Positions 46,676 through 56,592 of a stretch of DNA of 64,000 nt are shown in pieces. The notes under the pieces were generated by a model. It did no database searches. It saw only the letters and a list, made by a program, of their open reading frames with translations, and was not told where the DNA came from. Source of the DNA: an uncultured Acidimicrobiaceae bacterium (GTDB lineage: Bacteria; Actinomycetota; Acidimicrobiia; Acidimicrobiales; Bog-793). Each line of letters begins with the position of its first letter. Position 1 is the first letter of the stretch. The translations under genes were made by a program, and so were the position numbers. The stretch is from contig CAWISR010000003.1 of assembly GCA_963838845.1 (NCBI GenBank), positions 1,092,322 to 1,156,321 on the forward strand. The letters are read 5' to 3'.

Positions 46676-47428
46676 GTGCGAGACTCGCCGCCGATGGATC
46701 GGGACACCTACCTCGCGCACGTCCGCAGCGACGGCAAGCGCCTCATCGAGGTCGCGAAGGGGTCGGCCGCCGCCCCGATCCCGAGCTGCCCGGAATGGGA
46801 CATGCGCGCGCTCGTCGGCCACGTGGCGTCGGTCCATGCCTGGGTGGCGAACATTCTCGAGAACGACCTGCAGACGCGCCCCGACCTCCGTCGCGTCGAC
46901 GAGCTAGTCGGCCACTTCGACGACGTCGCGGCGGACTACGAATCGAACTTCGCTCGCCTTCTCGCCGCGCTCGAGGCGACGACAGATGACGACGTGGTCT
47001 GGAACTGGTCCGATCGGAAGCCCGCGCCTGCTGCGTTTTGGTTCCGTCGGATGGCTCAGGAGACCGTGATCCACCGAGTCGACGCGGAGCTCGGCGCCGG
47101 CGTTCCTTCGCCGATCGACGCGCCACTCGCCGCCGACGGAATCGGCGAGTTTCTCGGCCTGCTGCAGCGCTTCATCGTCTACGAACCCGTGGAAGCGATG
47201 TCCGGCTCGATCGCCTTTGCGACGACCGACGTCGGGGACGAATGGCGACTCGCACTCGCGCCGGACCACGTCGAGTTCATCGAGGACGAGGTCGACGCGA
47301 CCGTGCGCGGTGCTGCTTCGGACCTGTATTTGTGGGTGATGCACCGTGACGACGGCGACACCGCACTGCTCAGTGTTGGCGGTGATCGCGAGGTCGTCGA
47401 GCGGTGGCGAAACGTGAAGTTCGCTTGA
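46676..47428 (+). CDS. DinB-like / mycothiol-dependent maleylpyruvate isomerase-family (TIGR03083-type) protein
   Basis: MDRDTYLAHVRSDGKRLIEVA...CPEWDMRALVGHVASVHAWV...FWFRRMAQETVIHRVDAE... The start could be the ATG at 46694. The family call comes from the N-terminal motif pattern only. Confidence 0.6.
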   Translation: MRDSPPMDRDTYLAHVRSDGKRLIEVAKGSAAAPIPSCPEWDMRALVGHVASVHAWVANILENDLQTRPDLRRVDELVGHFDDVAADYESNFARLLAALEATTDDDVVWNWSDRKPAPAAFWFRRMAQETVIHRVDAELGAGVPSPIDAPLAADGIGEFLGLLQRFIVYEPVEAMSGSIAFATTDVGDEWRLALAPDHVEFIEDEVDATVRGAASDLYLWVMHRDDGDTALLSVGGDREVVERWRNVKFA

Positions 47429-48888
47429 GGCGGAAGGACCGCGGGGCGGCAGAGCCGACTCGGGCGGTCGTCGTCGGTTCGGGACCGAACGGCCTCGCGG
47501 CTGCGATCGAGCTCGCCCGCCACGGTCTCGAGGTGGAGGTCCTCGAGGGTGCGGCGACTCCGGGCGGCGGCTGCCGCAGCGCAGCGGTCACCGAAGCAGG
47601 CTTCGTGCACGACCTCTGCTCGGCGGTTCACCCGCTGCTCGCGGAGTCCCCCTTTTTTCGTGAGCAGGCTCTCGCTTCGCGCGGCGTCGAGTTGCTGGTT
47701 CCCGAGGTCGCCGTCGCCCACCCGCTCGACGGTGGGCGGGTTGGCGCGGTGCGGGTAAGCGTCGAGGAGACCGCCGCGTCGCTCGGCGCGGACAACGACC
47801 CGTATCGGCGAGTTTTCGCCTGGATGGTGCGCGACCGCGAGAAGCTCATCCCGACCCTGCTCGCACCGATCCGCACGCCGCCGGTCCATCCGGTGCCGGC
47901 AGCACGCTTCGCCGCGCTCGGTCTTCGCTCGGCGCGCCACCTCGCCCGACGATTCACCTCGGACGAGGCGCGTGGAATTGTCGCCGGCGTCGCCGCGCAC
48001 TCGATGCTCGCGCTCGACCAACCCCTGACGGCATCGTTCGCTCTCCTGCTCACGACGCTCGCGCACTCGACGGGATGGCCGATCGTGCGCGGCGGGAGCT
48101 CGTTCATCGTCGATGCGCTCGTGGGGGAGCTCGAAGCGCTCGGCGGGAAGGTGACGTGCGAAACCCGAGTGAACTCGCTCTCCGACGTTGGGCCCGCCGA
48201 CGTCGTGCTCTTCGACGTCGCTCCGAGCGCACTCGCCCGCATCGCCGGCGACGCGCTCCCGACCCGCTACCGGCGTGCGCTCGAGCGCTTCCGGAACGGA
48301 CCGGGCGTCTTCAAGATCGACTACGCGTTGAGCGAAGCCGTTCCGTGGAGTTCGCCTGCGTGTCGCGTCGCTGGGACGGTGCACGTCGGCGGTTCGTTCG
48401 AGGAGGTGGCGCGCGCCGAAGCCGATGTCGCCCAAGGCCATCATCCGGACCGGCCCTTCTGCATCGTCGTGCAGGCGAGCGTGGTCGACCCGTCGCGCGC
48501 GCCCGCGGGGCGGGCGACGTTGTGGGCGTACTGCCACGTCCCGAACGGGTCGGACGTCGACATGACCGGGCGGATCGAGGCCCAGATCGAACGGTTCGCC
48601 CCCGGCTTCCGGCAGGTCGTCACGGCCCGAGCGACGCGTGGCCCGGCACAGCTCGAGGCCGAGAACCCGAACGACGTCGGCGGCGATATCGCGGGGGGTT
48701 CGTCGGATCTGCTCCAGACGATCTTCCGGCCGGTTATGCGGTGGAACCCGTACCGCACCCCGATCCACGGCGTCTACCTCTGCTCGGCGTCGACGCCACC
48801 GGGCGGTGGAGTGCACGGCATGTGCGGCTTGCACGCCGCACAGACGGCGCTTTCTGACCTCCGCCACCGCGCCCGGGACCGAGTCTGA
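47404..48888 (+). CDS. FAD/NAD(P)-binding oxidoreductase, phytoene-desaturase (CrtI)-like family
   Basis: The Rossmann motif is AVVVGSGPNGLAAAIELARHGLEVEVLEGAATPGGGCRS and the C-terminus reads ...GVYLCSASTPPGGGVHGMCG. An alternative TTG start at 47425 gives a TTGA overlap with the upstream stop. Confidence 0.8.
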   Translation: MAKREVRLRRKDRGAAEPTRAVVVGSGPNGLAAAIELARHGLEVEVLEGAATPGGGCRSAAVTEAGFVHDLCSAVHPLLAESPFFREQALASRGVELLVPEVAVAHPLDGGRVGAVRVSVEETAASLGADNDPYRRVFAWMVRDREKLIPTLLAPIRTPPVHPVPAARFAALGLRSARHLARRFTSDEARGIVAGVAAHSMLALDQPLTASFALLLTTLAHSTGWPIVRGGSSFIVDALVGELEALGGKVTCETRVNSLSDVGPADVVLFDVAPSALARIAGDALPTRYRRALERFRNGPGVFKIDYALSEAVPWSSPACRVAGTVHVGGSFEEVARAEADVAQGHHPDRPFCIVVQASVVDPSRAPAGRATLWAYCHVPNGSDVDMTGRIEAQIERFAPGFRQVVTARATRGPAQLEAENPNDVGGDIAGGSSDLLQTIFRPVMRWNPYRTPIHGVYLCSASTPPGGGVHGMCGLHAAQTALSDLRHRARDRV

Positions 48889-49055
48889 GCAGTTCGCCAG
48901 GGCGAGGGATGCCTCCGGGCGGCAGGTGATGCCTGCCCCCTCGCTGGACACCGGACGACACCCTTTCCGAGCTGGCCGTTTCGCTGCACACTGGCTGCAC
49001 GATCGCCCGTGCATCGCGCGGGTGGAGCGGGCCCGAGGGCCCGGTTTGGGGGGCG

Positions 49056-50054
49056 ATGATGCGCACCGAGGCTTCGGTTACTTCGATTTCGTGGATCCCT
49101 TCAGAGGCGATCAGCGGCGTCGCGGTGCGCGCGCCCTTCGACGTCGGGATCACGCACTACGACAACGCACCACCCGAGGTCGTGACCGACCTCGAGGAAC
49201 TCCGCGTCGCGGACCGCTTCCGCTTCGCGAACGAGTTGCGCGGATTCGTCGAGACCCAGAACGGCCGCATCGTCGACTACGGGCAATCGGGCGGTGGCGT
49301 GATCGGTTCGACGACGGTGCGGCTCGGCGGACTGCAGAAGACCTTCCAGGCGGTGCCGCTTCCCGACATCCGTCCCGATGCGGTCGTCACCGACCGCAGC
49401 GTCACCTTCGTCCAGACGGCCGGCGGACGGACAGGGATCCCCGCTCCGCGGCGTGTCCGACGCGCCCCGTTCGTGCAGTTGTCGGCGCCGCTCGTGTGGA
49501 CGACGCTGGCGCTCACGATCTTCGTCGACGGGCGCACTCGCATCGAGCTGCGCGGTGCGAGCCCGTTCCCGCGGCATTGGATCTATGGGCCGGACGGCAA
49601 GCTTGAGCAGAAGTCCGGTCTCATCGACTTCTCGACGTGGTACCGGCGCGCGTTCGGCGTCCACAGTCCGTGGGGCGACCGCGATTCGCGGGCGCTCACG
49701 ACCGCGATCGAGACCGCGCTCGAGCGCGAGCTTTCGACCGTGCTGATGAAAAGCGGCGAACGTCCGCGCGTCGCGACGGTTGCCGAGGGCTCGACGATCC
49801 TCGAACAAGGGGAGTCGGGGAACGAGCTGTTCTTGGTCCTCGACGGCGTCGTGCGCGTCGAGGTCGACGGCAAGCCACTCGTCGAATGCGGCCCAGGATC
49901 GGTCCACGGCGAGCGCGCCGCGCTCGAGGGCGGCAAGCGCACCGCGACGGTGCGTGCCGTGACGAAGTGCAAAGTTGCCTTCGCCTCGGCCGATCAGTTC
50001 GACAAGGACGTTCTCACAGAGCTCGCGAGCGGGCACCGACGGGAACTCGACTGA
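49056..50054 (+). CDS. Protein with unknown N-terminal domain (about 230 aa) and C-terminal cyclic-nucleotide-binding domain
   Basis: The C-terminal region is GSTILEQGESGNELFLVLDGVVRVEVDGKPLVECGPGSVHGERAALEGGKRTATVRAVTKCKVAF. It contains the phosphate-binding-cassette pattern G-E-x-A ... R-T-A. I did not recognise the N-terminal domain. Confidence 0.8.
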   Translation: MMRTEASVTSISWIPSEAISGVAVRAPFDVGITHYDNAPPEVVTDLEELRVADRFRFANELRGFVETQNGRIVDYGQSGGGVIGSTTVRLGGLQKTFQAVPLPDIRPDAVVTDRSVTFVQTAGGRTGIPAPRRVRRAPFVQLSAPLVWTTLALTIFVDGRTRIELRGASPFPRHWIYGPDGKLEQKSGLIDFSTWYRRAFGVHSPWGDRDSRALTTAIETALERELSTVLMKSGERPRVATVAEGSTILEQGESGNELFLVLDGVVRVEVDGKPLVECGPGSVHGERAALEGGKRTATVRAVTKCKVAFASADQFDKDVLTELASGHRRELD

Positions 50055-50055
50055 C

Positions 50056-51429
50056 ATGCCGACGCTCGAGGACGAACGAGCGGTCGCGGGAGGTGATCGT
50101 GGCGTCGGGGGGCCGACGATCACCGTCTTGCTCGCAGACGACAACCTGATTGTCCGAGAGGGCGTGAAAGCGCTGTTGGTACTGGAGCGCGACTTCGAAC
50201 TCGTTGGCACTGCCGGTGACTACGACGAGCTCGTCGCGGCGTCCGAGCGACTCGCCCCGCAGGTCGTCATCACCGACATCCGGATGCCGCCGAACTTTCA
50301 ACAGGAAGGCATCGACGCCGCGCACGAGATCCGCAAGCGCCACCCTGGCACCGGGATCGTCGTGCTCTCCCAGTTCGACGACCCCGAGTATGCGATCTCT
50401 CTCCTCGCCGAGGGCTCCGCGGGCTACGCGTACCTGTTGAAGGACCGCGTCGCCGAGGGTGACCAGCTCGCCCGGGCGGTGCGCACCGTCGCAACAGGGG
50501 GTTCGGTGCTCGACCCGGCGATCGTCGAGTCGATGGTCCATCCGGTCACCGACTCGGGAGGACTCGACGAGTCCGACGAGCAGCTGCTGAAGTTCGTCGC
50601 CGAGGGCCGACCGATCAAGGCGATCGCCGTCGCGACGAACACGACTCCCGCTGCGACCGCGGACGCCGTCGAGCGGCTGTTCCTGCGCCTCGCGAAGGAC
50701 GCGAGCAGCGGCAGCAAGCAGTCGCTTCGTCAGCTGCGCAAGCTGCACGAGGCGATCGTCGATCGCGAAGAACAAGGCGAATCGCTGAGCCGCCTACTGC
50801 CCGGTGGCGTCGCGCAAATGCTGCGCGACGAAGGATGCCGTCCCGGCGAGACGGTCCAGCTCACCGTCAGCGTCTTGATGTCGGACATCCGCGGGTACTC
50901 GACGATCGCCGAGCGCGCCGATCCGAGCGCGCTTGCCGGGCAGCTGAACGTGCATCGCGGCGAGATGAACCGAGCGGTCATCGGAGAAGGGGGCACCGTG
51001 ATGCAGTTCGTCGGCGACGCGGTGATGGCGGTCTTCGGGGCGCCGGTTCCGATCCCGGATCACCCGGACAGGGCGCTGCGCGCCGCGCTGGCGATGCACC
51101 GCGCGCAGGAGGCGGTGAACGTTCGCTGGCGCGATGAGGGTCTTGCCGAGTTCGGCCTCGGCATCGGGATCACGACCGGCGAGGTCGCCGCGGCATTGCT
51201 CGGATCGGACGAGCGCCTCGAGTACACGGTCGTCGGCGACACCGTGAACCTCGCTCAGCGGATCCAGCAGTGGGCAGAACCGGGAGAGACCGTCCTTTCC
51301 GACGCGACGTACCAGTCGTTGCTCGACCAGATCGCGGCGGAGCCGATCGCGCCGTCGACGGTGAAGGGGCGCTCAGGTTTGGTCGGCGCGTGGAAGGTGG
51401 CGGCACAAATGGCGGGAGTGGACCGATGA
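50056..51429 (+). CDS. NarL-type response regulator (REC plus LuxR-like HTH remnant) fused to a class III adenylate/guanylate cyclase domain
   Basis: REC: VLLADDNLIVREG...VVITDIRMPP...IVVLSQF...YLLKDR. HTH-like: DEQLLKFVAEGRPIKAIAVATNTTPAATADAVERLFLRLA. Cyclase: VLMSDIRGYST...GGTVMQFVGDAVMAVFG...EYTVVGDTVNLAQRIQ. The ATG lies 1 nt after the upstream stop. Confidence 0.85.
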   Translation: MPTLEDERAVAGGDRGVGGPTITVLLADDNLIVREGVKALLVLERDFELVGTAGDYDELVAASERLAPQVVITDIRMPPNFQQEGIDAAHEIRKRHPGTGIVVLSQFDDPEYAISLLAEGSAGYAYLLKDRVAEGDQLARAVRTVATGGSVLDPAIVESMVHPVTDSGGLDESDEQLLKFVAEGRPIKAIAVATNTTPAATADAVERLFLRLAKDASSGSKQSLRQLRKLHEAIVDREEQGESLSRLLPGGVAQMLRDEGCRPGETVQLTVSVLMSDIRGYSTIAERADPSALAGQLNVHRGEMNRAVIGEGGTVMQFVGDAVMAVFGAPVPIPDHPDRALRAALAMHRAQEAVNVRWRDEGLAEFGLGIGITTGEVAAALLGSDERLEYTVVGDTVNLAQRIQQWAEPGETVLSDATYQSLLDQIAAEPIAPSTVKGRSGLVGAWKVAAQMAGVDR

Positions 51430-52154
51430 GCGTGATGCAGGCACGTGGCGTGCGCAAGACGTATGAGACCGAGGGTGCCCCGGTGCGCGCGCTGCGGGGA
51501 GTCGACCTTGCGATGGGCGAAGGGGAGTTCGTCGCGATCATGGGACCGTCGGGCTGTGGCAAGTCGACGCTGTTGAACCTCATCGCAGGTCTCGACGTGC
51601 CAACCGATGGTGAGATCGTCGTCGCCGGAGAGGCGCTGTCCGGCATGGACGAGGACGATCTCGCGTTGATGCGCCGTCGCCACATCGGCATCGTCTTTCA
51701 GTTCTTCAACCTCTTGGAAGGGATGACCGTCCTCGAGAACGCGACGCTCCCCGCCGTCGTCGCCGGCCTGCGCCGTCGGCAGGCGGAGAGCAGGGCGCGT
51801 GATCTCCTCGACCTCCTCGGTCTCGCCGACAAGGCGCGCGCCGCTCCCGGACTGCTCTCAGGCGGGGAGCGCCAGCGCCTCGCCATCGCCCGCGCGCTCG
51901 CGAACGCGCCGACTCTGCTGCTCGCCGACGAGCCGACCGGCGCGCTCGACTCCGAAGGCGGATTCGAAGTTCTCGAGCTGTTCCGGCGGCTGCACGCCGG
52001 TGGCCAGTCAATCCTTCTCGTCACCCACGACGAGCACGTCGCCGCGCCGGCGTCGCGCCTCGTCCATATGCGCGACGGCCGCATCGAATCCGACGTCGAA
52101 CAGCGCGTGGAGCTCGCCGTCGAAGCGGAGATCGACGTCGCGATCTACGAATGA
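51426..52154 (+). CDS. ABC transporter ATP-binding protein (MacB/LolD/FtsE-like) with no adjacent permease gene
   Basis: Walker A GPSGCGKST, signature LSGGERQRLAIARAL, Walker B LLLADEPTGALD, H-loop LLVTHD. ATGA overlaps are present at both its 5' and 3' ends. Confidence 0.9.
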   Translation: MSVMQARGVRKTYETEGAPVRALRGVDLAMGEGEFVAIMGPSGCGKSTLLNLIAGLDVPTDGEIVVAGEALSGMDEDDLALMRRRHIGIVFQFFNLLEGMTVLENATLPAVVAGLRRRQAESRARDLLDLLGLADKARAAPGLLSGGERQRLAIARALANAPTLLLADEPTGALDSEGGFEVLELFRRLHAGGQSILLVTHDEHVAAPASRLVHMRDGRIESDVEQRVELAVEAEIDVAIYE

Positions 52155-54370
52155 TGGACGCCGCCCCGATCGTCGTCAGCCAGCTCGGTGTGCGCCGCGA
52201 ATCGGCGGCCCCGCCGGCGTCGCGTCGGCGCGTCGCGGTCGGGCCGACGTTGCTGCTCGCCGCGGTGGCGCTCGGGGGGGCCATCGCCGCGCCCGTGGTC
52301 GACCACCGCGGCGACCTTCTCACTCAAGTGGTCCGGGCGGTCGTCGTCGGGTGCTTCGCGATCGCCGGCGGATTCGCCCTCATGCTCCGGCCGAAGGAGC
52401 GCCAGCCGCTGCTCGTGCTCTCGGCGACGTTCGTCGCCGCTGCCGCGGTCGTCTCGGCGGCCCTCATTCAAGCCCACGCCCACCACGCCGCCGTCGCCGG
52501 GGGTCTCGTCGCGGTGGCGCGCCTTGTCGCGCCGGTGGCGCTCGCGATCTTGCCGATGTCGACGATGCACGTCCTGCTCGGCCTGCCGGACGGCACCTGC
52601 CGGCTGAGCCGCTTCGCGATCGGCGGCGGCTATCTCGTGGCGATCGGCGTCGGGCTCGGAATGTGGAGCGACAGGCCGGTGCTGCCGCTGTGGCCGGTCG
52701 GGGTCGAGCTCCTCGTCGCCGTGCCCATCGGGCTCTACGGCGCCAGGCGCCGCTATCGGCGCTCGGCAGGGCTCGAGCGCCAGCGGATGCAGTGGTTCGG
52801 GTGGGCGGTGTCCGTCGGGGTCGAGATCGTCGTCCTCGCCGAGGCGTTGCGCCTTTTTTGGGGCTGGCCGACGCGCGAAGCGCTCGTCGTCACGGTCGCC
52901 GCCGTGCCGATCGCGATCGCCGTCGCGGCGGGCGCGACGACCGTCATCGCGACGCGCATCGACCGCCTGCTCGCCTGGTCGGTCTCGGTCGCCGGTCTGA
53001 CCGGCGTCGTCGTCGTCGTGTACCTCATCGTCGTCTTGGGCATCGGACACGCGCCGACGAAACAGGAGCGGACGCTGCTCATCCTCTCGATGATTGCCGC
53101 GGCGGCGTCAGCGTTGATCTACGGGCCGGCGCGCACGCGCCTGAAGTCTTACGCGAACCGCATCGTCTACGGCGAGCGCGAGGCGCCCGACACCGTGCTA
53201 CGCACCTTCGCGACGCGCCTCACCCGCGCCATGCCGCTTGAGGAACTCTTGTTGCAGGTCGTCGAGTCGCTGCGCAAAACGCTTGCGCTCACCTCGGCCG
53301 AGATCTGGACCGGATCCGGCGGTGTGCTGGAACGCGCCGTGTCGGTGCCGGACGCACCCGGGGCGCGGATCGTGTTGAGTGCGAGCGAAGAGTCGGTGGT
53401 CGCCCGCGCCGGCGTCACGGGCAATGCGTGGCTTGAGATCTGGATGCCGCAGATCCTGAAGGGCCACGAAGGGTTTGCGATCCGCGTCGCGCCGACCACG
53501 CACTCGGGCCGCGTCCTCGGACTCGTCGTCGCGGCGCGCAAATCCGACGGCGAGCGCTTCAGCGAGGGCGACGACACGACGCTCGTCGAGCTCGCCCGGC
53601 AGCTCGGCCTCGCTCTCCACAACGTCGAGCTCGACTCGGCACTGCAGGAGTCACTCGACGAGGTGCGGCGACAAGCCGACGAACTGCGCGCCTCGAGAGC
53701 GCGGATCGTTGCCGCGTCGGATGCGGCGCGCCGCCAGATCGAGCGGAACCTCCACGACGGCGCGCAGCAGCACCTCGTCGCGCTCGCCGTCAACGTCCGT
53801 TTGGCGCGCCAGCTCGTCGAGTCCGACCCTGCGGGTTCTGTCGAGATCCTCGACGCACTCGGCGGTGAGCTGCAGGACGCGGTGCAGGAGCTGCGTGCGC
53901 TCGCGCACGGCATCTACCCGCCGCTGCTCGTCGACCGCGGCGTCGAAGAGGCGTTGCGGTCCGCGGCCTCGCGCGCCGCCATCCCAACCGAGGTCGAGGC
54001 CGAAGGTCTACGGCGCTATTCGCCGGAGGAGGAGGCGGCCGTCTACTTCTGCTGCATGGAGGCGCTGCAGAATGCCGGCAAACACGCGGGCGAGGGAGCG
54101 ACCGCCACCGTGCGAGTCCACGAACGCGAGGGGACGCTCTTTTTCGATGTCGTCGACAACGGCGCCGGATTCGACATGAACGGCGTGAAGGGGCACGGCG
54201 CGGGCTTCGTCAACATGCGCGACCGCGTCGGCGCGATCGGCGGCACGGTCTCGGTGCAGTCCTCGCCCGGGAAGGGAACGAAGATCTCCGGGCACTTGCC
54301 GCTGAGCGGGACGAACGAGCCGTCGACGAACGGTGCGACTGGCGTGGAGCGCTCGGCCCTCAGGACCTGA
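52151..54370 (+). CDS. Polytopic (about 10 TM) sensor histidine kinase with GAF-like domain, HisKA_3 and HATPase_c domains
   Basis: The N-terminal 330 aa are almost entirely hydrophobic helices. The central region resembles GAF (...LLLQVVESLRKTLALTSAEIW...GLVVAARK...). The H-box is RQIERNLHDGAQQHLVAL. ATPase motifs are EALQNAGKHAG..., DNGAGF and GHGAGFVNMRDRV. Confidence 0.88.
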   Translation: MMDAAPIVVSQLGVRRESAAPPASRRRVAVGPTLLLAAVALGGAIAAPVVDHRGDLLTQVVRAVVVGCFAIAGGFALMLRPKERQPLLVLSATFVAAAAVVSAALIQAHAHHAAVAGGLVAVARLVAPVALAILPMSTMHVLLGLPDGTCRLSRFAIGGGYLVAIGVGLGMWSDRPVLPLWPVGVELLVAVPIGLYGARRRYRRSAGLERQRMQWFGWAVSVGVEIVVLAEALRLFWGWPTREALVVTVAAVPIAIAVAAGATTVIATRIDRLLAWSVSVAGLTGVVVVVYLIVVLGIGHAPTKQERTLLILSMIAAAASALIYGPARTRLKSYANRIVYGEREAPDTVLRTFATRLTRAMPLEELLLQVVESLRKTLALTSAEIWTGSGGVLERAVSVPDAPGARIVLSASEESVVARAGVTGNAWLEIWMPQILKGHEGFAIRVAPTTHSGRVLGLVVAARKSDGERFSEGDDTTLVELARQLGLALHNVELDSALQESLDEVRRQADELRASRARIVAASDAARRQIERNLHDGAQQHLVALAVNVRLARQLVESDPAGSVEILDALGGELQDAVQELRALAHGIYPPLLVDRGVEEALRSAASRAAIPTEVEAEGLRRYSPEEEAAVYFCCMEALQNAGKHAGEGATATVRVHEREGTLFFDVVDNGAGFDMNGVKGHGAGFVNMRDRVGAIGGTVSVQSSPGKGTKISGHLPLSGTNEPSTNGATGVERSALRT

Positions 54371-54800
54371 AGCTGAGCGGCAGTTTCCCGGCCCAGCCGC
54401 GCGTCAGCACGTCCGGGCCGAACTGTTCTTTGTGCACGTACGCCACGGCGCCGCTCGTCGCGGCATCGGCGGGGAGGCTCTCGACGTCGTAGGTCGACAG
54501 CAAGAGGACCCGCACCGACGGGTGCTGCTCGACGATGCGCCGTGTCGCCTCGATGCCGCCCATGCCGTCCATGTTGATATCCATCAGGACGAGCTGCGGC
54601 TCGAGCTCTGATGCGAGGGCGACGGCTTCCTCGCCCGAGCGTGCCTCTCCGACCACAGTGAACCCGGGGGTCGCGCGCACGACCGCCTTGGCGGCCAAGC
54701 GGAACGGAGCCTGGTCGTCGACGATCAGCACACCGACTGAATCGTCAGCCACCTCATCATCATCGCAGGTCGGTGGCGGTGAGCGGACGCTTGCCAGCAC
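54360..54800 (-). CDS. Stand-alone receiver-domain response regulator (no output domain)
   Basis: VLIVDDQAPFRLAAKAVV...QLVLMDINMDGMGGIEATRRI...VLLLSTY...AYVHKEQ. Its 3' end overlaps the kinase 3' end by 11 nt (convergent). The start is uncertain (ATG 54800 or a downstream GTG). Confidence 0.8.
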   Translation of the reverse strand: MLASVRSPPPTCDDDEVADDSVGVLIVDDQAPFRLAAKAVVRATPGFTVVGEARSGEEAVALASELEPQLVLMDINMDGMGGIEATRRIVEQHPSVRVLLLSTYDVESLPADAATSGAVAYVHKEQFGPDVLTRGWAGKLPLSFRS

Positions 54801-54832
54801 GAGGGTGCAAGGCGTGGCACCACCACGACGGC

Positions 54833-55501
54833 CTAATCGGCGCGATCGGAGAGAAAAAGGAGTACGGCCTTCACCCGTCGGTGGACGTCGAGTTCCTGGG
54901 ACAACCCGAGCTTGGAGAAGATCGAGTTGATGTGCTTTTCGACCGCTCGCTCAGAAAGCACGAGCGCGGCGGCGACAGCGGCGTTGTTCTTGCCGGTCGC
55001 CATCTCGGCGAGGATCTCTTTTTCGCGCGGGGTCAAGAGCCGCATCGGCGAGTTCTGGGCGCGAGAGCGGGCGGCGACGAGCGCGTCGACGACGACCGGG
55101 TCGATCACCGACCCCCCGGCGGCCGTCTGTCTGATCGCATCGGCGAGCTGTTTGATGTCCGAGACCCGTTCCTTCAGCAGGTAGGCGCGACCCTTCGATC
55201 CGTGTTCCAAGAACGCGAGCGCGTAGCTCGGTTCCGCGTACTGGCTCAAGACGACGACGCCGACGTCGGGATTGCGCGTGCGGAACTCGTTCGCCGCACG
55301 GATGCCTTCGTCGGTGCCGGTTGGCGGCATGCGTATGTCGGTGACAACGACGTCGGGCTTCTCCGCATCGACGCTTTCGAGCAGCGAGTCGTAGTCGGCG
55401 CACGTCGCGACGAGTTCGAGTTCATCTTCGGAGGCGATCAGTCGCGCGACACCCTCGCGGACCAGGTAGTCGTCCTCGGCGAGGACGACCCGTATCGACA
55501 T
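54833..55501 (-). CDS. NarL/LuxR-family DNA-binding response regulator
   Basis: MSIRVVLAEDDYLVREGV...VVVTDIRMPPTGTDEGI...VVVLSQYAEPSYALAFLEHGSKGRAYLLKERV...LTPREKEILAEMATGKNNAAVAAALVLSERAVEKHINSIFSKLGL. It is clearly paralogous to the REC part of 50056-51429. Confidence 0.92.
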   Translation of the reverse strand: MSIRVVLAEDDYLVREGVARLIASEDELELVATCADYDSLLESVDAEKPDVVVTDIRMPPTGTDEGIRAANEFRTRNPDVGVVVLSQYAEPSYALAFLEHGSKGRAYLLKERVSDIKQLADAIRQTAAGGSVIDPVVVDALVAARSRAQNSPMRLLTPREKEILAEMATGKNNAAVAAALVLSERAVEKHINSIFSKLGLSQELDVHRRVKAVLLFLSDRAD

Positions 55502-55570
55502 ACCGACAGGCTACGTGACGAAATCCTCGACGTCTGATAACCCGTCACCGATGGGTCGTTATGAGAGGTA

Positions 55571-56404
55571 TCAATCGAGCGTGATCAGCTGCCCCTGGGT
55601 CGCGGCGCGGACGGGCAGCGGCGCGTCCGTCAACTCCTTCACGATGGCGTCAACTTCGTCATCGGTGCGCGAGGGATCGTGGTGGAACAGAACGAGCTCG
55701 CGGGCCTTCGCCGCGGCGGCCAGGCCGACGGCGTACGGGTAGGCGGAGTGGCCGTAGTGCGCCTTCGTCGGCAGTTCCTCCGCCGTGTACTGCGAGTCGT
55801 GCAAGACGAGGTCGCAACCCTCGGTGAGCGCGAGCGCGGTGTCGTGGTACTCGCCAAAGCCGTCCGGGCCGGGACCGAGGTCGGTCGGGCAATGGTCGGA
55901 GAGGTAGGCGAGCGTGGAGTGGCCGTCCGAGACCCGATACCCGAAGGTCCGCCCGCCTCCGTGGGGGATGTCGAGTGCGAGGACCGAAAGCCCTTCGAGC
56001 TCGTGTTCCCCCGGTTCGAGCGGACGGAAGCTCCACGACCCCCTGAGGCCGCGGGGCGTGATCGGGAAGTGGGGCGGCGACATGAAGCGCTCGAAGATCT
56101 CTTCGCCGTGGGTTTGCGCCGGCAAGTAGGCGTCGACGCGGGCGTCTTCGCGGTCCGCCGAGGTGAAGAACGGCAGGCCCTGGGTGTGATCCCAGTGCAG
56201 ATGGCCGAAGAGGATCGAGCCGCGGAAGGGCTCACCCGCAAAGACGGCGTCGGCGGCGCGAATGCCCGTGCCGGCGTCGATGATGAGCGTCGGTGTGGCG
56301 CCATCTGAAGAGATCCCGACACAGGAGGTGTGGCCCCCGTAGCGGACGAAATCGGCGCCCGGGGTGGGCGTCGACCCCCGCGTGCCGAACAGATGGACGC
56401 GCAT
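55571..56404 (-). CDS. MBL-fold metallo-hydrolase (paralog 2) with canonical HLHWDH motif
   Basis: [29 protein letters not shown]...[15 protein letters not shown]...VLHDSQY...GHSAY...LFHHDP. It lies 69 nt upstream of the NarL regulator on the same strand. Confidence 0.85.
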
Positions 56405-56537: not shown

Positions 56538-56566
56538 TTGCCGGGTCGGCGCGGCGACGGTATCGT
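56538..56566 (+). promoter_or_regulatory. Candidate sigma-A-type promoter of groES-groEL
   Basis: TTGCCG (56538-56543), an exact 17-nt spacer, then TATCGT (56561-56566), directly abutting the CIRCE operator. Confidence 0.5.
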
Positions 56567-56592
56567 TAGCACTCAGAGCAATAGAGTGCTAA
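56566..56592 (+). promoter_or_regulatory. CIRCE operator (HrcA binding site)
   Basis: TTAGCACTC-agagcaata-GAGTGCTAA is a perfect match to the TTAGCACTC-N9-GAGTGCTAA consensus, 24 nt upstream of the groES ATG. Confidence 0.92.

Follow-up and report, generated by a model that had tools for sequence, protein, structure and literature searches.

A chromosomal cyclic nucleotide receptor with an unrecognised N-terminal domain, the probable read-out of a two-component-controlled cyclase in an uncultured Acidimicrobiaceae bacterium

A class III cyclase gene that lies immediately downstream of a gene for a protein joining a cyclic nucleotide monophosphate (cNMP)-binding domain to a domain of no recognised family invites comparison with antiphage systems of the Pycsar type. 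The question raised by the locus described here is whether that comparison holds, or whether the two genes serve ordinary cellular signalling. The locus lies within a 64,000-nucleotide stretch (the window) of contig CAWISR010000003.1, positions 1,092,322 to 1,156,321, from the assembled genome of an uncultured Acidimicrobiaceae bacterium, and the gene in question, termed here the receptor gene, occupies positions 49056-50054 on the forward (+) strand of the window. A preliminary description made from the letters alone had likened its arrangement to Pycsar. The best reading of the present results is that this uncharacterised gene encodes a housekeeping cNMP receptor with a novel output domain, that the cNMP is probably cyclic AMP (cAMP), and that the defence framing is wrong. 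The receptor is probably a chromosomal, vertically conserved protein through which the signal of a cyclase under two-component control is read; its gene belongs to a cluster of eight genes that is widely conserved in soil actinobacteria.

The open reading frame is a real gene. Its translation holds every string quoted in the preliminary description; its GC content at codon positions 1, 2 and 3 (0.68, 0.50 and 0.85, respectively) matches that of the other genes of the 68% GC window; and protein sequence searches return thousands of homologues, with the best E-values reaching 1e-149. The frame, of 332 codons, opens with tandem ATG codons at 49056 and 49059 (49056-49061), just 3' of a G-rich stretch. 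The second of these is the likelier start, because homologues begin at this point with MR(I/T)E and the public gene call agrees, which would give a protein of 331 residues. A single base separates the TGA stop codon (50052-50054) from the ATG, at 50056, of a gene whose product matches both Response_reg and Guanylate_cyc, so that the 1-nt gap to a cyclase gene noted earlier is confirmed. No paralogue of the receptor gene was found in the window, and an Rfam scan of the window gave no matches.

The evidence supports the assignment of the receptor as a predicted cNMP-binding protein with a conserved phosphate-binding cassette. Its C-terminal cNMP-binding (CNB) domain (residues 212-332; 49689-50051, + strand), recognised through Pfam family PF00027, the PDB and Foldseek, is made up of an N-terminal helix, a beta-barrel, the phosphate-binding cassette, a C-helix and a conserved tail, GHRRE. 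The PF00027 (cNMP_binding) match covers residues 242-316 with 58.2 bits against a cut-off of 27.5; sequence matches in the PDB include PKG, PKA-R, MloK1 and HCN, with E-values down to 8e-18; and Foldseek pairs the domain, at a probability of 1.00, with the CNB domains of PKA-R, PKG, HCN and CRP. The cassette, GERAALEGGKRTATVRA (residues 285-301; 49908-49958, + strand), was read from the sequence and compared in 40 homologues, all of which have G285, E286, R287 and A288, with R295 and T296 reaching at least 90% conservation. The preliminary description had called it intact, and the Gly-Glu and Arg-Thr pairs, which serve the ribose 2'-OH and the phosphate, respectively, are indeed kept. An Arg-Thr pair in the phosphate-binding cassette is found in cAMP binders and cGMP binders alike. 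When the model of the full-length receptor was compared by Foldseek, the matches covered the CNB domain only, and no two-domain relative was found. Past the C-helix, the C-terminal tail SGHRRE (residues 323-332; 50022-50051) has an invariant H327, with R328, R329 and E330 at least 90% conserved, and might serve as a lid or for docking within the molecule.

The receptor gene is closely associated with cyclase genes. Its surroundings were compared in 80 related loci, with 6 kb as the limit of the neighbourhood in which a cyclase was counted. A class III cyclase domain is encoded within this distance in 65 loci, and two further loci, in which the REC part of the orthologous cyclase is cut at a contig edge, bring the total to 67. 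An orthologue of the REC-cyclase of the window is present in 62 of the 80, and in five loci without it a different cyclase, of either CHASE2-cyclase or AAA/TPR-cyclase type, adjoins the receptor gene (L018, 2556-6071, - strand; L038, 4146-5984, + strand; L029; L061; L068); apparently the receptor can take its input from more than one upstream source. This proximity, which extends to unrelated types of cyclase, supports the view that the receptor is functionally tied to its neighbouring cyclase, and the divergence of the receptor is correlated with that of the cyclase (Spearman 0.44, p 0.0009). The other members of the cluster recur less uniformly: LuxR-type regulator in 54 of the 80 loci, metallo-beta-lactamase (MBL)-fold hydrolase in 44, ATP-binding cassette (ABC) ATPase in 37, flavoprotein in 30-43 and histidine kinase in 22-36. 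In the usual layout the regulators, kinase, ATPase and cyclase are encoded on one strand, and the receptor, MBL-fold hydrolase and flavoprotein divergently on the other. Among the 62 loci with the orthologous cyclase, receptor and cyclase genes are divergent and adjacent in 40, and in tandem as in the window in only five. The tandem, 1-nt geometry that had suggested Pycsar is therefore the exception in this family, where the receptor is usually co-transcribed with the MBL-fold hydrolase and the flavoprotein.

The cyclase of the window (50056-51429, + strand; 457 residues) comprises a REC domain, a remnant NarL-type linker and helix-turn-helix (HTH), and a class III cyclase domain, with Pfam matches to Response_reg and Guanylate_cyc. 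In the REC domain (PF00072, 54.2 bits) the acidic pocket (D28/D29), the phospho-acceptor aspartate (D74) and the residues S105 and K129 are present, as read from the translation; with this intact domain and an adjacent histidine kinase, the earlier remark that the cyclase is wired to a phosphorelay was well founded. The catalytic domain (PF00211, 79.6 bits) has the metal-binding aspartates D277 and D321 and the transition-state residues N398 and R402, all conserved in 58 orthologues, and its best solved relatives are Cya2 (2w01) and CyaB (3r5g). The substrate pair is Q317/T391 (51004-51006 and 51226-51228), with Gln in all 58 orthologues and either Thr or Ser at the second position; the column aligned with Gln317 holds Lys in CyaB, Glu in Cya2 and Lys in the Cya2 E-to-K variant. 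The cyclase has neither of the canonical pairs, which are Lys/Asp(Thr) in enzymes that use ATP and Glu/Cys(Gly) in those that use GTP. A Gln-containing pair is known from Mycobacterium tuberculosis Rv0386, an adenylyl cyclase with guanylyl side activity, and judged from its residues the present enzyme probably makes cAMP. Between the REC and catalytic domains GerE was not detected, while residues from about 150 to 265 (50500-50850) align to a NarL-type linker and the first part of an HTH (positions 2-171 of 205 in the NCBIfam MctR model). This region has the look of a decayed DNA-binding domain, which suggests an origin of the cyclase through fusion with an entire response regulator.

The family to which the receptor belongs is large, fixed in architecture and chromosomal. 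A search with the N-terminal domain (N-domain) retrieved more than 7,600 proteins from a database clustered at 90%; the N-domain family forms 1,223 clusters at 50% identity and is encoded in at least 568 species-representative genomes, among whose lineages are Acidimicrobiia, Solirubrobacterales, Streptosporangiaceae, Nocardioidaceae, Egibacteraceae and Dormibacterota. The best 120 matches are all of about 331 residues and all carry PF00027, as do 118 of 120 in a second search. Most of the longer or shorter variants prove to be fragments, or metagenomic calls marred by a frameshift or by read-through; one has two CNB domains. With the architecture thus fixed and the variants explained, the N-domain is therefore an obligate partner of the CNB domain. 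One apparent variant lacking the CNB domain, P0158, was rejected as an artefact, since it is a singleton on a 1.3-kb contig and all its nearest relatives carry the domain. Translated searches (tblastn) with the N-domain found no match in 72,556 plasmids and none in 50,697 phages. In the window the gene lies in the core chromosome, with a ribosomal-protein block, alr, tsaE, tsaB, rimI and tsaD upstream and groES, groEL and guaB downstream. The block alr-tsaE-tsaB-rimI-tsaD-groES-groEL is usually contiguous in actinobacteria; here the eight-gene cluster interrupts it, with tsaD and an MDMPI-like gene on one side and groES/groEL on the other, at 43-58 kb of the window. A literature search on the receptor architecture or its cluster returned nothing relevant.

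What, then, is the N-domain? The preliminary description had assigned to it some 230 residues that match nothing recognisable. Residues 1-232 alone indeed gave no match in Pfam, NCBIfam, PHROGs or PADLOC, with nothing consistent across 51 family members, and matches to PDB sequences, sought with the single sequence and with a family profile, were at chance level only. The length needs correction: as modelled, the globular fold of the N-domain closes near residues 200-205, and the helix that opens the CNB domain begins at about residue 212, so that the unrecognised part is of about 205 residues. This all-beta/alpha domain (residues 1-205; 49056-49670, + strand) has 39 invariant columns in 51 sequences, and an AlphaFold (AF2) model of it alone, built from the 51-sequence alignment, is a confident one, with a predicted local distance difference test score (pLDDT) of 81.5 and a predicted template modelling score (pTM) of 0.77. 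The model runs from one strand through two short helices and about nine strands to a final helix. Conserved motifs are SWIPSEA, HYD, DRFRFAN, GxIGSTT, FVQTxGGRTGxPxPRRV, APLxWTT, GASPFPRHW and KSG, and the domain is rich in runs of invariant polar residues, QTxGGRTGxPxPRR, WTT and PWG among them. Two invariant segments, residues 128-143 and about 195-224, are poorly modelled by AlphaFold. A conserved linker, GxHSPWGDxDS (residues 201-211; 49656-49688, + strand), with P205, W206 and G207 invariant and pLDDT below 50, leads from the N-domain to the N-terminal helix of the CNB domain. The mean pairwise identity of the N-domain and of the CNB domain is 72% and 66%, respectively, in a close set of sequences and 36% and 41% in a distant one.

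Structure prediction and Foldseek comparison, which the preliminary description had proposed among the means of placing the domain, led to no well-characterised family. The sole significant PDB neighbour is 3c5p (BAS0735 of Bacillus anthracis, of unknown function), with an E-value of 1.9e-4, a probability of 1.00 and 225 aligned columns, and with a TM (template modelling) score of 0.43-0.49, a root-mean-square deviation of 9 A and 17% identity; there was no match between the two at the level of sequence profiles. Unlike the receptor, 3c5p has no CNB domain, and since it also has no known function it is uninformative on the activity of the N-domain. Searches of the literature for 3C5P and BAS0735 returned irrelevant papers only, and Foldseek comparison of the N-domain model with viral structures gave no match. 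It is tempting to suggest that the N-domain represents a previously undescribed family, possibly with a new fold, and that it provides an output of a new type under the control of a cNMP, acting either as an enzyme or as a molecular switch. With a REC-gated cyclase that may even make a product other than cAMP, it would form a dedicated and never-studied second-messenger circuit, spread widely among soil Actinomycetota and Dormibacterota that are for the most part uncultured. Taken as a whole this is a tentative proposal, rather less likely to be right than wrong.

The eight-gene cluster of the window (47404-56404) encodes, besides the receptor and the REC-cyclase, a histidine kinase, an ABC ATPase, an MBL-fold hydrolase, a CrtI-family flavoprotein and two response regulators. 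Downstream of the cyclase gene lie the genes for a MacB/LolD/FtsE-type ABC ATPase (51426-52154, + strand), the start of which overlaps the cyclase stop (ATGA) and the stop of which overlaps the kinase start, and for a membrane histidine kinase (52151-54370, + strand), whose hydrophobic N-terminal third has no Pfam match and is followed by GAF, HisKA_3 and HATPase_c domains. Because of the 1-nt gap and the two ATGA overlaps, the receptor, REC-cyclase, ABC ATPase and kinase genes are taken to form one operon. They are flanked on one side by the gene for a CrtI/CrtO-family NAD(P)/FAD oxidoreductase (47404-48888, + strand), which in most related loci is the third gene of a receptor-MBL hydrolase-flavoprotein operon, and on the other by genes for a single-domain response regulator (REC only; 54360-54800, - strand), a NarL/LuxR-type response regulator (REC and GerE; 54833-55501, - strand) and the MBL-fold hydrolase (Lactamase_B_2; 55571-56404, - strand), the last lying directly 3' of the receptor gene in most related loci. 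The ABC ATPase is coupled to the kinase at the level of translation. No permease gene for the ATPase was found in the 64-kb window; an FtsX-type permease of about 850 residues is encoded at the flank of the cluster in 25 of the 80 loci (for example, L072, 9295-11841, and L003, 177-2762). Together these features are reminiscent of transporter-coupled (Bce-like) sensing. Beyond the cluster, a perfect CIRCE (HrcA) operator, TTAGCACTC-N9-GAGTGCTAA, is found upstream of groES at 56566-56592, with none in 100 shuffles.

The pathway is proposed to begin with the membrane histidine kinase (GAF/HisKA_3), encoded together with the ABC ATPase, which would phosphorylate the neighbouring class III cyclase at its REC domain. 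The cyclase would then make a cNMP, most likely cAMP, though the invariant Gln/Thr pair may allow another product, and this would bind to the C-terminal CNB domain of the receptor. Movement of the CNB helices would be relayed through the linker (HSPWGD) and the N-terminal helix of the CNB domain to switch the activity of the N-domain, which may be a cNMP-gated catalytic module or a module that binds a small molecule or partner, and which would probably work with the MBL-fold hydrolase and CrtI-family flavoprotein whose genes are usually co-transcribed with it. Alternatively, the MBL-fold hydrolase, a candidate cNMP phosphodiesterase, would be the phosphodiesterase of the pathway. A catalytic or ligand-binding N-domain is favoured because of its many invariant polar residues, the precedent of CNB proteins that are direct effectors, and the co-transcription with two enzymes. 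Three observations weigh against this account: a cyclase is missing from the 6-kb neighbourhood in 13 of the 80 loci; no catalytic motif can be recognised in the N-domain, whose only significant fold neighbour, at a TM score below 0.5, is a protein of unknown function; and the cyclase lacks the canonical Lys/Asp pair, so that cAMP as the product is an assumption.

The main rival to this proposal arises from the invariant segments that are modelled as flexible. Long invariant stretches in regions of low AlphaFold confidence (residues 128-143 and 195-224) are typical of segments that fold on a partner, and the N-domain might be a cNMP-switchable binder that regulates a protein of the cluster, in the manner of PKA regulatory subunits, so closing a feedback loop. 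The tight co-occurrence of the receptor with the same cluster proteins and the constant fusion of the N-domain to a CNB domain would both fit. However, most characterised bacterial CNB fusions are generally known to act directly, through a DNA-binding domain, an enzyme or a channel, and the 13 loci without a nearby cluster still keep the N-domain. Such a partner switch is, on balance, unlikely, with perhaps one chance in a few of being correct.

The DNA around the receptor gene bears on a further alternative, that the receptor controls transcription in response to cAMP through a DNA-binding domain of a new type, other than HTH, autoregulating the divergent promoters of the cyclase and receptor genes. 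The divergent geometry is the commonest one (40 of 62 loci), with a shared region of 150-200 bp that carries conserved palindromic boxes, and the N-domain has an invariant, arginine-rich loop, GRTGxPAPRRVRR. Three boxes are common to the divergent intergenic regions (in L013-L080): AAGGGGGCAGGCCCCAC, the palindrome GGGGGTG-N3-5-CACCCCC, and a -35-like element, CACCCTTG. A TANNNT -10 element comes next, close to the receptor start and in many loci about 7 nt ahead of it, a position that may point to a leaderless receptor mRNA. In relaxed form the palindrome is strongly enriched in front of the receptor gene, where 1.8% of the searched sequence holds 18 of its 66 matches, and further copies lie ahead of the flavoprotein gene, between the regulator genes and beside the FtsX-type permease gene. 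In the window, degenerate copies of the boxes, for example GGCAGGTGATGCCTGCCCCC and GACACCCTTTCC, are found in the intergenic region 48889-49055, upstream of the receptor gene; the positions noted in the window are 48920-48945, within that region, and 54803-54822. This recurrence across the intergenic regions suggests that the whole cluster is one regulon. The palindrome is probably the operator of the cluster's own LuxR-type regulator, which is a more obvious reader of 7-N-7 palindromes than the receptor, and the same box also stands beside the regulator genes. The N-domain, moreover, is near neutral (median pI 6.65, net charge -1) and matches no HTH or other DNA-binding profile. The near neutrality of the domain and the presence of a LuxR-type regulator make a DNA-binding role less likely, and as a full explanation it is improbable.

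Slightly less probable again is that the receptor is a buffer or sponge for cNMP without an output of its own, like the mycobacterial universal stress protein Rv1636, or that its CNB-like domain serves another ligand. The lack of any assignable output function for the N-domain speaks for this. Against it, that domain and the CNB domain are equally strongly conserved over more than 1,200 clusters, which is unexpected for a passive appendage, and the cassette residues that contact ribose and phosphate are conserved.

There remains the possibility with which the locus was introduced, Pycsar-like (or Pucsar-like) abortive infection, in which a cNMP made in response to phage would activate the receptor as a toxic effector. 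In Pycsar a PycC cyclase is paired with a receptor whose N-terminal CNB domain controls a TIR or transmembrane (TM) killing domain (PMC11224242). In the window, too, a cyclase adjoins a CNB-domain protein with an unknown second domain; the PADLOC models for PycC and PycTIR match the shared domains, and the CNB domain of PycTIR (8jsk) is among the structural neighbours of that of the receptor. Membership of Pycsar is nevertheless rejected, and the idea is scarcely credible, because residues 1-232 of the receptor hold no TIR or other Pfam match and no TM segment (the most hydrophobic 19-residue window, at 1.72, is modelled as a beta-strand); the domain order is the reverse of that in PycTIR, the CNB domain being C-terminal (residues 212-332); the cyclase is REC-gated inside a two-component cluster; the family is very large, with synteny conserved in several classes of actinobacteria and in Dormibacterota and with a core-chromosomal location, and none of its members was found in the plasmids or phages searched; and the PADLOC scores are generic, the PycC model giving 74 bits on the cyclase against 79.6 bits for Pfam, no better, and the effector models aligning to residues 224-317 only, that is, to the CNB domain. 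The Pycsar-like reading of the layout in the preliminary description is accordingly abandoned, and for the hunting of defence systems the case carries a caution: a cyclase beside a CNB protein with an unknown domain is insufficient for a Pycsar-like call.

The interest of the proposed housekeeping receptor lies elsewhere. Cyclases are plentiful in actinobacteria, and few of the cAMP effectors there have been characterised. To these the receptor family, with its fixed architecture and its more than 1,200 clusters at 50% identity, would add a widespread effector whose output domain is in no domain library. Because its input is wired, with a kinase, a REC-cyclase, the receptor and a candidate phosphodiesterase encoded together, the pathway would be testable from end to end.

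Among known systems, Pycsar (PycC with PycTIR or PycTM), whose cyclase makes cCMP or cUMP, and the cGMP-based Pucsar resemble the present one in having a class III-type cyclase beside a CNB-coupled protein, and differ in that they are sporadic genes of defence islands whereas the receptor family is syntenic and chromosomal; only the logic of a cyclase-made cNMP read by a CNB-linked output remains common to both. Response-regulator-fused class III cyclases (REC-CHD) share with the cyclase a REC domain joined to a class III domain with all catalytic residues, and differ from it in two respects: the NarL-type remnant present here, and the substrate pair, which is Gln/Thr(Ser) here, Lys/Asp(Thr) in adenylyl cyclases and Glu/Gly in Cya2. 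The CRP/FNR factors (GlxR and the CRP of M. tuberculosis), which read out cAMP in actinobacteria, have a CNB domain of similar sequence and structure, but the NCBIfam CRP models match the receptor over residues 240-326 only and far below their cut-offs, and the receptor has no C-terminal HTH, ending at the CNB C-helix at residue 332 and bearing instead an extra all-beta/alpha domain of about 205 residues at its N-terminus. The mycobacterial proteins Rv0998 (the CNB-GNAT protein Pat/KATmt) and Rv2565 (CNB-patatin) are also actinobacterial and likewise combine a CNB domain and a non-DNA-binding output in one polypeptide. The best NCBIfam match of the receptor is in fact the Pat model, below threshold and over the CNB domain only. 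The receptor differs from both proteins in the C-terminal position of its CNB domain, in an output domain with neither a GNAT nor a patatin profile, and in its dedicated two-component/cyclase cluster; with them it would share the setting of housekeeping cAMP signalling from class III cyclases.

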